Source: Escherichia phage MirsaeidiM_Esher1 | Sequence record: PQ438048.1 | Reading direction: 5' to 3' (one strand) | DNA length: 64,000 nucleotides | Shown: in pieces, positions 52,741 through 52,810 of the stretch | Position numbering within the stretch: position 1 is the stretch's first letter | Layout: the number at the start of each line of letters is the position of its first letter | Program-made: the position numbers and the translations under genes | The notes under the pieces: model-generated | What the model was told of the DNA's origin: nothing | What the model saw: only the letters and a program-made list of their open reading frames with translations | The model's database searches: none

Positions 52741-52810
52741 TATCCCGTGCTGGATTCGAACCAGTATCACAATAAGCTGTGGAACTCTTATCCTATAAGT
52801 CTAACGGGAA
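52741..52810 (-). tRNA. tRNA-like element, probable pseudo-tRNA (no anticodon assignable)
   Basis: T-arm ACTGG-TTCGAAT-CCAGC and 6 of 7 acceptor pairs present, but no CCA and no proper anticodon arm. Confidence 0.25.

Follow-up and report, generated by a model that had tools for sequence, protein, structure and literature searches.

A tRNA-like element, most likely a tRNA gene relic, within the tRNA operon of Phapecoctavirus coliphages

Phage T4 encodes RNAC and RNAD beside its tRNA genes. Also known as species 2 and species 1 RNAs, they are small RNAs whose function is still unknown (PMC9697503). Phage tRNAs have been found to counter defences that target tRNAs, altered anticodon loops allowing them to escape or neutralise these systems (PMC10264068, PMC11464382, PMC11555353). 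In plant mitochondria, tRNA-like cloverleaves of non-canonical form, called t-elements, serve as cleavage signals for RNase P and RNase Z (PMC1920247). Phage genomes also carry annotated tRNA pseudogenes, such as 'tRNA-Pseudo-CAT' and 'tRNA-Pseudo-GTA' of Escherichia phage Mt1B1_P17. Here, we describe a tRNA-like element from an Escherichia phage that shares some features with each of these systems.

The closest resemblance is to the phage tRNA pseudogenes. Like them, the element is derived from a tRNA, lies within an operon on the same strand as its neighbours, scores below the thresholds, has lost its decoding features and shows neutral-like polymorphism. However, it is more degenerate than the genes annotated as 'pseudo', which score 39-49 bits and have 7-nt anticodon loops, and, unlike theirs, its degenerate state is genus-wide, with no intact orthologue found and with relatives in two other phage groups. 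With t-elements it shares the non-canonical cloverleaf, the T-loop motif GGTTCRANYCC, an acceptor-like stem and a location inside a longer transcript (in our case, one predicted by consensus scans). By analogy, the element could direct endonucleolytic cuts that set the ends of the neighbouring RNAs. However, t-elements flank organelle mRNAs and their cleavage has been mapped, whereas the neighbours of the element, which is known from its sequence, are tRNAs; since these have RNase P sites of their own, a separate processing signal would be less needed here. RNAC and RNAD resemble the element in their setting, all three being small sequences that neither code for protein nor are tRNAs and that accompany a phage tRNA cluster, but the T4 RNAs have a greater length and were shown by Northern blot to accumulate. 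Finally, the element and the defence-escaping tRNAs are both phage-encoded sequences of the tRNA family in which the anticodon loop is the most variable part, but those tRNAs decode and have 7-nt loops, while the anticodon loop of the element is unusable. Overall, the element most likely belongs with the degenerate tRNA genes of phage tRNA arrays; it was unannotated until now and is ordinary apart from its relatives in two other coliphage groups.

The source phage belongs to Phapecoctavirus (phAPEC8-like E. coli myoviruses, Stephanstirmvirinae), and dozens of genomes of this kind show 96-99% identity to a 2.5-kb query around the element. In the window (the whole 64-kb stretch of DNA analysed), ARAGORN detected a minus-strand cluster of 10 tRNAs within 52656-54739, to which Rfam added an eleventh at 53958-54042. 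The part of the cluster around the element contains the following features:

52813-52886, minus strand: tRNA-Ile(GAT), the upstream neighbour (ARAGORN; Rfam, 72.2 bits)
52656-52734, minus strand: tRNA-Met(CAT), 79 nt, the downstream neighbour (ARAGORN; Rfam, 48.6 bits)
53234-53263, minus strand: promoter-like site TTGACA-18-TATAGT, 11/12 matches, upstream of tRNA-Gly (consensus scan)
52522-52540, minus strand: intrinsic-terminator-like hairpin followed by a T-run, downstream of tRNA-Met (consensus scan)

The element is located in a 78-nt minus-strand spacer (52735-52812; minus-strand letters GTTTCCCGTTAGACTTATAGGATAAGAGTTCCACAGCTTATTGTGATACTGGTTCGAATCCAGCACGGGATACCTAAT) with tRNA-Ile upstream and tRNA-Met downstream. 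Only 2 nt separate it from the CCA end of tRNA-Ile, and tRNA-Met starts 3 nt past its own CCT tail. The terminator-like hairpin has a 7-bp stem with five G-C pairs and the tail TTTTGCTATC, and promoter-like sites are no more numerous in the region than in shuffled sequence. From this arrangement, it seems likely that tRNA-Gly, tRNA-Gln, tRNA-Pro, tRNA-Ile, the element and tRNA-Met form a single transcription unit, bracketed by the promoter-like and the terminator-like sites.

A tRNA-like sequence between tRNA-Met and tRNA-Ile had been noticed in an earlier, sequence-only reading, and the Rfam tRNA covariance model (RF00005) does align there, at exactly 52741-52810 on the minus strand. The alignment is full length (model positions 1-71), and its score of 18.6 bits falls short of the gathering score of the model (29 bits), i.e., below the level of a tRNA. 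The E value of the match was 0.07 when a 101-nt query was searched against all 4227 Rfam families, and ~0.01 when the tRNA model alone was run over the whole 64-kb window. ARAGORN left the element uncalled in the window, and a valid tRNA fold that the sequence-only reading might have missed was found neither with this tool nor with the Rfam model. A covariance model built for the family (R1) scored the element at 95.5 bits at 52738-52810, as the sole copy in the 64-kb window. Its parts are listed below:

52738-52810, minus strand: the whole tRNA-like element, 73 nt, acceptor base 1 through the CCT tail (Rfam tRNA model and family model)
52804-52810, minus strand: 5' strand of the acceptor stem, UUCCCGU, pairing with 52742-52748
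52742-52748, minus strand: 3' strand of the acceptor stem, ACGGGAU (Rfam alignment and explicit parsing)
52782-52801, minus strand: D region, GACUUAUAGGAUAAGAGUUC, with a G18G19-like GG within a conserved CUUA/UAAG hairpin
52768-52781, minus strand: anticodon-arm remnant, stem CACAG/UUGUG plus the 4-nt loop CUUA
52749-52765, minus strand: T arm, stem ACUGG/CCAGC and loop UUCGAAU
52738-52741, minus strand: discriminator-like A followed by CCT, which replaces CCA

The acceptor helix is near-complete, as had been claimed: pair 1-72 (52810/52742) is a U.U mismatch and the other six are Watson-Crick pairs, where a canonical tRNA has 7 bp, and its 5' strand is directly followed by U8 and A9. The D region is 20 nt long and shows no clear canonical D stem, which would have 4 bp starting two nt past the acceptor. 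Instead, it forms a hairpin of 4-5 bp (CUUAU-AGG-AUAAG) in which GG is present, a U occupies the expected A14 and the only conserved pairing, CUUA/UAAG, lies 2 nt inward; alternative registers conflict. This is the first of two short hairpins that had been thought to replace the D/anticodon region, while the second proved to be the anticodon stem itself with a shortened loop. The claim that a proper anticodon arm is lacking therefore holds for the loop CUUA (52773-52776), of 4 nt versus a canonical 7 nt with U33 and a purine at 37, but not for the stem, whose 5 bp (52781-52777 with 52772-52768) are well formed. Explicit parsing leaves 2 nt for the variable region. The T arm, described as intact, has indeed the consensus loop, but its stem is made of four pairs plus an A.C mismatch at the first one (52765/52749), which is G-C in the 18 other Phapecoctavirus copies. 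The absence of CCA was also correctly seen: the 3' end reads A-CCT, and CCA is encoded by 11/11 of the other tRNA genes in the window.

The element is retained in every Phapecoctavirus copy examined, and in ~70-79 database records, with a nearly constant length. Five Vequintavirinae phages (UPEC06, LTH01, A73, A7_1, and W70) carry an ~80% identical version in a different context, after tRNA-Tyr, and most Vequintavirinae have no copy. A third version was found in the siphovirus phiEB49, where ARAGORN calls a tRNA-Val(AAC) and Rfam gives only 24.6 bits. None of the members of the family reaches the tRNA gathering threshold; the majority haplotype of Phapecoctavirus also scores 24.6 bits (compared to 18.6 for the window copy), and the Rfam tRNA model found no match in A73 at E<=10 (101-nt search) or in UPEC06 at E<=1 (2.7-kb search). 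In the sister genus of Phapecoctavirus, represented by phi92, the element is absent at the comparable position and the order of the Met and Ile genes is different.

Searches beyond these genomes added few copies. An exact 23-mer common to two of the lineages had no match in IMG/VR, and the pattern of the D region recovered one new IMG/VR contig together with phiEB49, and one MAG contig. A degenerate version of this pattern hit 56 loci in one metagenome scan; two were further copies, and the other 54 lacked a T-arm and matched by chance. Altogether, only four extra Phapecoctavirus-like copies came from IMG/VR, the scan of one metagenome, that of one genome collection and the search of 5,426 E. 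coli genomes. The comparison of the orthologous position in related phages, which had been proposed as a check, revealed no intact tRNA, nor did one appear at this position in the phage database, IMG/VR, the metagenome and genome collections or the E. coli genomes. A host origin of the element was ruled out, with 0 matches in the 5,426 E. coli genomes. An attP-type tRNA fragment marking an integration site was also discarded, as the element is a full-length cloverleaf within an operon of a lytic myovirus and not a partial 3' fragment.

None of the database records inspected annotates a tRNA at the element, and literature searches turned up neither a published description of it nor RNA-seq or end-mapping results for Phapecoctavirus. 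The elements of Phapecoctavirus, Vequintavirinae and phiEB49 constitute a small, previously unannotated family. Most records annotate nothing there, while those of WPEC1/2/4/6, ETEC-TG, EP57 and UPEC06 have a 'hypothetical protein' across it. If these annotations were correct, the stretch would belong to a small protein-coding gene and its resemblance to a tRNA would be incidental. There are indeed open reading frames over the spacer on both strands, including one of 59 codons on the plus strand at 52696-52875. However, they extend through the flanking bona fide tRNA genes, the 1-nt indels of the phiWec190, PsgM04F, ECML-183-2 and ESCO25 copies would shift the frame, and the covariation described below fits an RNA cloverleaf and not a reading frame. 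Considering this overlap with tRNA genes and the indels in relatives, we reject protein coding as a hardly credible explanation.

To compare structures, we used an alignment of 18 distinct copies from the three lineages, produced with the family covariance model. It holds standard pairs in 95.8% of the pair cells, although, being fitted to the proposed structure, the alignment makes pair counts lean in its favour. In this fitted alignment, seven pairs have changed on both sides: acceptor pairs 1, 2 and 3, three pairs of the anticodon stem and the first pair of the T stem. None of the shuffles (0/500) reached seven such pairs, and the slid-register controls gave 0-1. Between Phapecoctavirus and Vequintavirinae, the compensatory changes are C-G to U-A at acceptor pair 3 and G-C to A-U at the first T-stem pair, the latter being G.U in phiEB49. 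Sequence identity of the element between these two groups is 79%, as high as or higher than that of pairs of tRNAs with the same anticodon (57-80%). Since homologues in three phage lineages keep all the helices, with seven pairs changed on both sides, the resemblance is beyond chance, and it is confirmed that the stretch 52738-52810 is a real tRNA-shaped, tRNA-derived sequence. Although drawn from no more than three lineages, the same seven pairs indicate that the cloverleaf helices were under selection during the history of the family. A MAFFT alignment of the anticodon arm of phiEB49 was found to be misaligned and was replaced by explicit parsing and the covariance-model alignment.

The D region and the T-arm are nearly invariant, and few parts are as well conserved over the three lineages as the D region. 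The anticodon stem of 5 bp is also common to all three, but the loops differ. That of phiEB49 is 7 nt long and canonical-looking (UUAACAA, anticodon AAC). Vequintavirinae loops have 7 nt as well (CGUCUCG or CAUAUCG), with no U33 and with a pyrimidine at position 37, and their 'anticodon' changes from UCU to UAU between close relatives. The 19 Phapecoctavirus copies have a shortened and variable loop of 3-4 nt (CTTA, TTTA, CTA, TTT). As for the ends of the molecule, CCA is encoded and all acceptor pairs are formed in both phiEB49, where the stem has 7 bp, and Vequintavirinae, where the T stem is perfect as well. Pair 1-72 is mismatched (U.U or U.C) in all 19 Phapecoctavirus copies, and their 3' tail is CCT, CAT or CCC, never CCA.

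This pattern can also be read as that of a functional non-decoding RNA with the shape of a tRNA, in which selection keeps the acceptor stem, the T-arm and the D region and the anticodon loop is dispensable. One possible role would be in processing, with the RNA providing RNase P with a site within the transcript for separating tRNA-Ile from the unusual 79-nt tRNA-Met. Alternatively, the RNA could, after its excision, be a decoy or sponge that occupies some factor of the host or the phage whose binding to tRNAs does not depend on the anticodon. The seven pairs changed on both sides over three lineages, the 95.8% of paired cells and the near invariance of the D region and T-arm argue for this possibility. 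So does the fact that Vequintavirinae and Phapecoctavirus keep all the helices though neither has a canonical anticodon loop, as well as the compensatory changes between them at acceptor pair 3 and the first T-stem pair. However, all the compensatory changes may predate the loss of decoding, and, with pair 1-72 mismatched and a 3' tail that varies, a defined mature end seems doubtful. The narrowness of the family also speaks against it: most Vequintavirinae lack the element, as does the sister genus at the position compared, and the metagenome scan added only two copies. We consider this explanation possible, but on the unlikely side.

Regarding its ancestry, the element is homologous to tRNA genes: the tRNA model aligns with it from end to end, ARAGORN calls a tRNA in phiEB49, the helices covary and the nearest sequences outside the family are coliphage tRNA-Arg genes. 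Indeed, the best non-member matches of the family model were the tRNA-Arg of phiEB49 (39.8 bits) and that of Rogue1 (37.6 bits), both from Rogunavirinae, above the other tRNAs searched. A20 is significant for tRNA-Arg, and the element has an adenine at the equivalent position, in a D-loop that resembles that of the phiEB49 tRNA-Arg. A tRNA-Arg-like ancestor, kin to the tRNA-Arg genes of coliphages, would thus be a reasonable lead from these similarities.

The phiEB49 relative, with its 7-nt UUAACAA loop, CCA, 7-bp acceptor stem and tRNA-Val call, raises the question of whether the element could be a working tRNA of unusual structure, aminoacylated and used by the ribosome (e.g., in frameshifting or other non-standard decoding). 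Bacteria and phages are known to have tRNAs with non-standard cloverleaves (PMC5389517). However, a loop of 3-4 nt and variable length cannot present an anticodon, which excludes decoding for the Phapecoctavirus form. This form also has the mismatch at pair 1-72, lacks CCA and has a variable region of only 2 nt, and the family scores of 18.6, 24.6 and 24.6 bits, or no match at all, never reach the gathering score. Hence, we regard a working tRNA as very improbable.

To assess how the element varies within Phapecoctavirus, we used ten closely related genomes that are colinear over the segment corresponding to 51163-52969 of the window. Of the 78 nt of the element, 10 are segregating sites (0.128 per nt), and two indel columns are also present. 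This value is similar to that of the four-fold degenerate sites of four neighbouring ORFs (17/124, 0.137; Fisher p = 1.0) and about four times higher than that of the flanking tRNA-Ile and tRNA-Met (5/153, 0.033; p = 0.009); the other non-coding spacers are also less variable (14/369, 0.038; p = 0.004). In this small sample, the element as a whole drifts at about the neutral rate. Diversity per feature had also been calculated from a global MAFFT alignment of the cluster, which was discarded because indels, cassette swaps and truncated loci distorted it; per-feature BLAST and the colinear sub-segment were used instead.

Several of the variants damage the tRNA fold and are tolerated. The ESCO25 copy has a 1-nt insertion in the T-loop, those of phiWec190, PsgM04F and ECML-183-2 have 1-nt loop deletions and that of DIJ07P1 has a change in the D hairpin (G24U). 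The window copy has two changes that are private among the copies examined, a T at 52795 (C in the others) and the A at 52765 that creates the A.C mismatch. Together, they cut its tRNA score from 24.6 to 18.6 bits and weaken its predicted stability (z = -1.3, versus -2.6 for the majority haplotype). On the other hand, the 32 helix nucleotides contain only 2 of the 11 within-genus variable sites, one of them a G.U to A-U change, although this bias is not significant (p ~0.11).

Compared with phAPEC8, the window copy differs at 6 of the 78 positions, when 0.24 differences would be expected from the flanks (Poisson, 2e-7). Accelerated evolution of the element was considered and set aside for recombination or recurrent mutation. 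Mosaic exchange or recurrent mutation is favoured because the pooled diversity is at the level of four-fold sites and there are four-gamete violations inside the 78 nt; the 19 copies comprise 14 haplotypes. The near-invariant flanking tRNAs could serve as recombination arms.

These data also bear on the functional RNA considered above. Its presence in every Phapecoctavirus copy examined and a within-genus variation that falls mostly outside the helices are in its favour, as are the analogies with plant mitochondrial t-elements, with RNAC and RNAD of T4 and with the phage tRNAs that counter tRNA-targeting defences. Against it, the element is overall as polymorphic as four-fold degenerate sites are, damaging variants such as the T-loop insertion of ESCO25 and the A.C of the window copy persist, and the avoidance of helices lacks significance. 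A broader version of the same idea, that coliphage tRNA operons carry a family of selected non-decoding tRNA-shaped RNAs whose anticodon loop is free to shrink or vary, seems unlikely to us. In that case, selection would keep the acceptor stem, the T-arm and the odd D region, and the excised RNA would work without regard to any anticodon, for instance as a decoy for a host toxin or enzyme that binds tRNAs, or else as a scaffold required for the processing of the neighbouring tRNAs.

We favour, with a probability of roughly 0.6, that the element is a non-decoding tRNA relic that is still co-transcribed with its neighbours and probably excised by RNase P. The sequence-only reading had suggested a decaying tRNA gene, and this idea was supported by the tRNA ancestry combined with the 3-4-nt loop, the 1-72 mismatch, the lost CCA and a polymorphism at the level of four-fold sites. 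Its alternative suggestion, a tRNA-like processing signal, is plausible. The element has the coaxial acceptor/T-arm helix and T-loop of a t-element-like RNase P substrate, supported by covariation, in a transcript predicted by consensus scans. Nevertheless, 'decaying' has to be understood as a long-persisting relic and not as a recent loss, given that the degenerate state is old and genus-wide and that there are non-canonical relatives in two other phage groups. The original gene, probably related to the tRNA-Arg of coliphages, would have lost decoding before Phapecoctavirus diversified, and the relic would have persisted inside the tRNA operon. With the anticodon loop and the CCA end lost, the element cannot decode.

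The relic would be transcribed together with tRNA-Gly, tRNA-Gln, tRNA-Pro, tRNA-Ile and tRNA-Met, in a transcript that starts at the promoter-like site (53263-53234) and ends at the terminator-like hairpin (52540-52522). The minihelix formed by the acceptor and the T-arm is what bacterial RNase P recognises, which makes it probable that the host enzyme cuts at the 5' end of the element (~52811/52810); tRNA-Ile would then keep a trailer of 2 nt. With RNase P also cutting at the 5' end of tRNA-Met, the element would be freed as an RNA of ~73-76 nt. This molecule would be unusable in translation, inert and with no function of its own, and its sequence would now be drifting almost neutrally, the window copy being one step beyond its relatives because of the private A.C in the T stem.

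Some observations do not fit easily with a plain relic. The element is retained in every Phapecoctavirus copy examined, seven of its pairs have changed on both sides and its identity between Phapecoctavirus and Vequintavirinae is 79%. In addition, the non-significant tendency of variable sites to avoid the helices (p ~0.11) suggests some residual constraint on them. The Vequintavirinae versions, without a canonical loop yet with perfect stems and CCA, hint that a non-decoding form may be maintained. If the helices were selected, the element would be an example from a bacterial virus of a tRNA-shaped RNA kept for a purpose other than decoding, and it would be relevant to ongoing studies of phage tRNAs and of the defences that target tRNAs.

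If the element is a relic, its value is for annotation and evolution, as a gene-sized stretch that tRNA finders leave uncalled and that is mislabelled as a hypothetical protein in several GenBank records. Together with the doubtful tRNA genes of the operon, it would document birth-and-death turnover and cassette exchange in the tRNA arrays of coliphages. Two further tRNA genes of the cluster, at 53958-54042 and 54267-54353, are of doubtful standing, and phi92 has an unrelated tRNA-like sequence, below the threshold, between its Met and Ile genes. These doubtful genes and the phi92 sequence point to relics being common in these operons.

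Distinct alleles of single tRNA genes were found in genomes that otherwise diverge from the window by only 0-2%, which suggests that phages swap single tRNA cassettes with one another. ESCO25 and ECML-183-2 carry a tRNA-Pro allele diverged by 5% and a tRNA-Gly allele diverged by 21%, and some genomes, again otherwise within 0-2% of the window, have an extra spacer of ~90 nt in the Gln-Pro interval. The features of the window concerned here are the following:

52656-52734, minus strand: tRNA-Met(CAT), downstream of the tRNA-like element at 52738-52810, 79 nt, D arm extended
52893-52969: tRNA-Pro
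53051-53148: spacer between tRNA-Gly and tRNA-Gln, 98 nt
53149-53222: tRNA-Gly
53772-53833, plus strand: terminator-like hairpin and tail in two copies, spacer between tRNA-Asn and tRNA-Thr
53958-54042, minus strand: tRNA-Tyr(GTA)-like gene, 39 bits with Rfam
54267-54353, minus strand: tRNA-like sequence with a long variable arm, Rfam tRNA-Sec model

Among otherwise near-identical genomes, tRNA-Met(CAT) varies by up to 5%, more than tRNA-Ile does, and the gene scores only 48.6 bits. It is labeled "tRNA-Pseudo-CAT" in Mt1B1_P17 and is also flagged in this way by a note in phAPEC8. The tRNA-Tyr(GTA)-like gene, which ARAGORN does not call, is "tRNA-Pseudo-GTA" in Mt1B1_P17 and plain tRNA-Tyr in phAPEC8.

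The sequence at 54267-54353 encodes CCA, has an acceptor GGAAGGG/CCTTCC and carries a loop, CUUGAAA, with a Ser UGA anticodon. It reached 37.4 bits against a threshold of 47 for the Rfam tRNA-Sec model, and no ARAGORN call was obtained for it in the window, phAPEC8 or SF1-1. The version in phiWec190 and PsgM04F, sharing about half of the aligned positions, is called tRNA-Ser(TGA). The sequence is either an unusual tRNA-Ser or another gene in decay.

Further tRNA-like sequences were found in other phages:

phage phi92 (L015), 2355-2431, minus strand: sub-threshold tRNA-like sequence, tRNA-Sec model, 22.4 bits
phage LTH01 (L004), 1583-1668: second unannotated tRNA-like stretch, ending ...GGAGTTCGACTCTTCACCTTCACGCCA
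phage phiEB49 (L005), 299-375: annotated tRNA-Val(AAC), sub-threshold at 24.6 bits with the Rfam tRNA model

The phi92 sequence, with the 3' end GCTGCCA, occupies the tRNA-Met/tRNA-Ile gap in the sister genus and is unrelated to the element. The LTH01 stretch, identical in UPEC06 (L001), lies after the element and before tRNA-Pro in the Vequintavirinae copies. Whether the phiEB49 gene works as a tRNA-Val is doubtful: its variable region is 3 nt long, its anticodon stem has a C.C mismatch and its anticodon has A34. A tRNA-Arg(CCT) whose D-loop and T-arm are similar ends 1 nt upstream.

The tRNA-Gly/tRNA-Gln spacer stays within 0-2% divergence in Phapecoctavirus genomes, including those that diverge most, and is thus more conserved than some of the tRNAs. 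By eye, its minus strand can fold into an imperfect but long hairpin (AAGGGUUGCCAGAA ... UUCUGGUUGCCCUU), and the plus strand has a ribosome-binding-like AAGGAG motif followed by a 12-codon ORF (MSKRESFLATLY). At 53772-53833, the two 17-nt copies of the terminator-like hairpin and tail (CTCTTGGCTACTGGGGG TTTACCTTAA) are identical and 45 nt apart, which points to a short tandem duplication.
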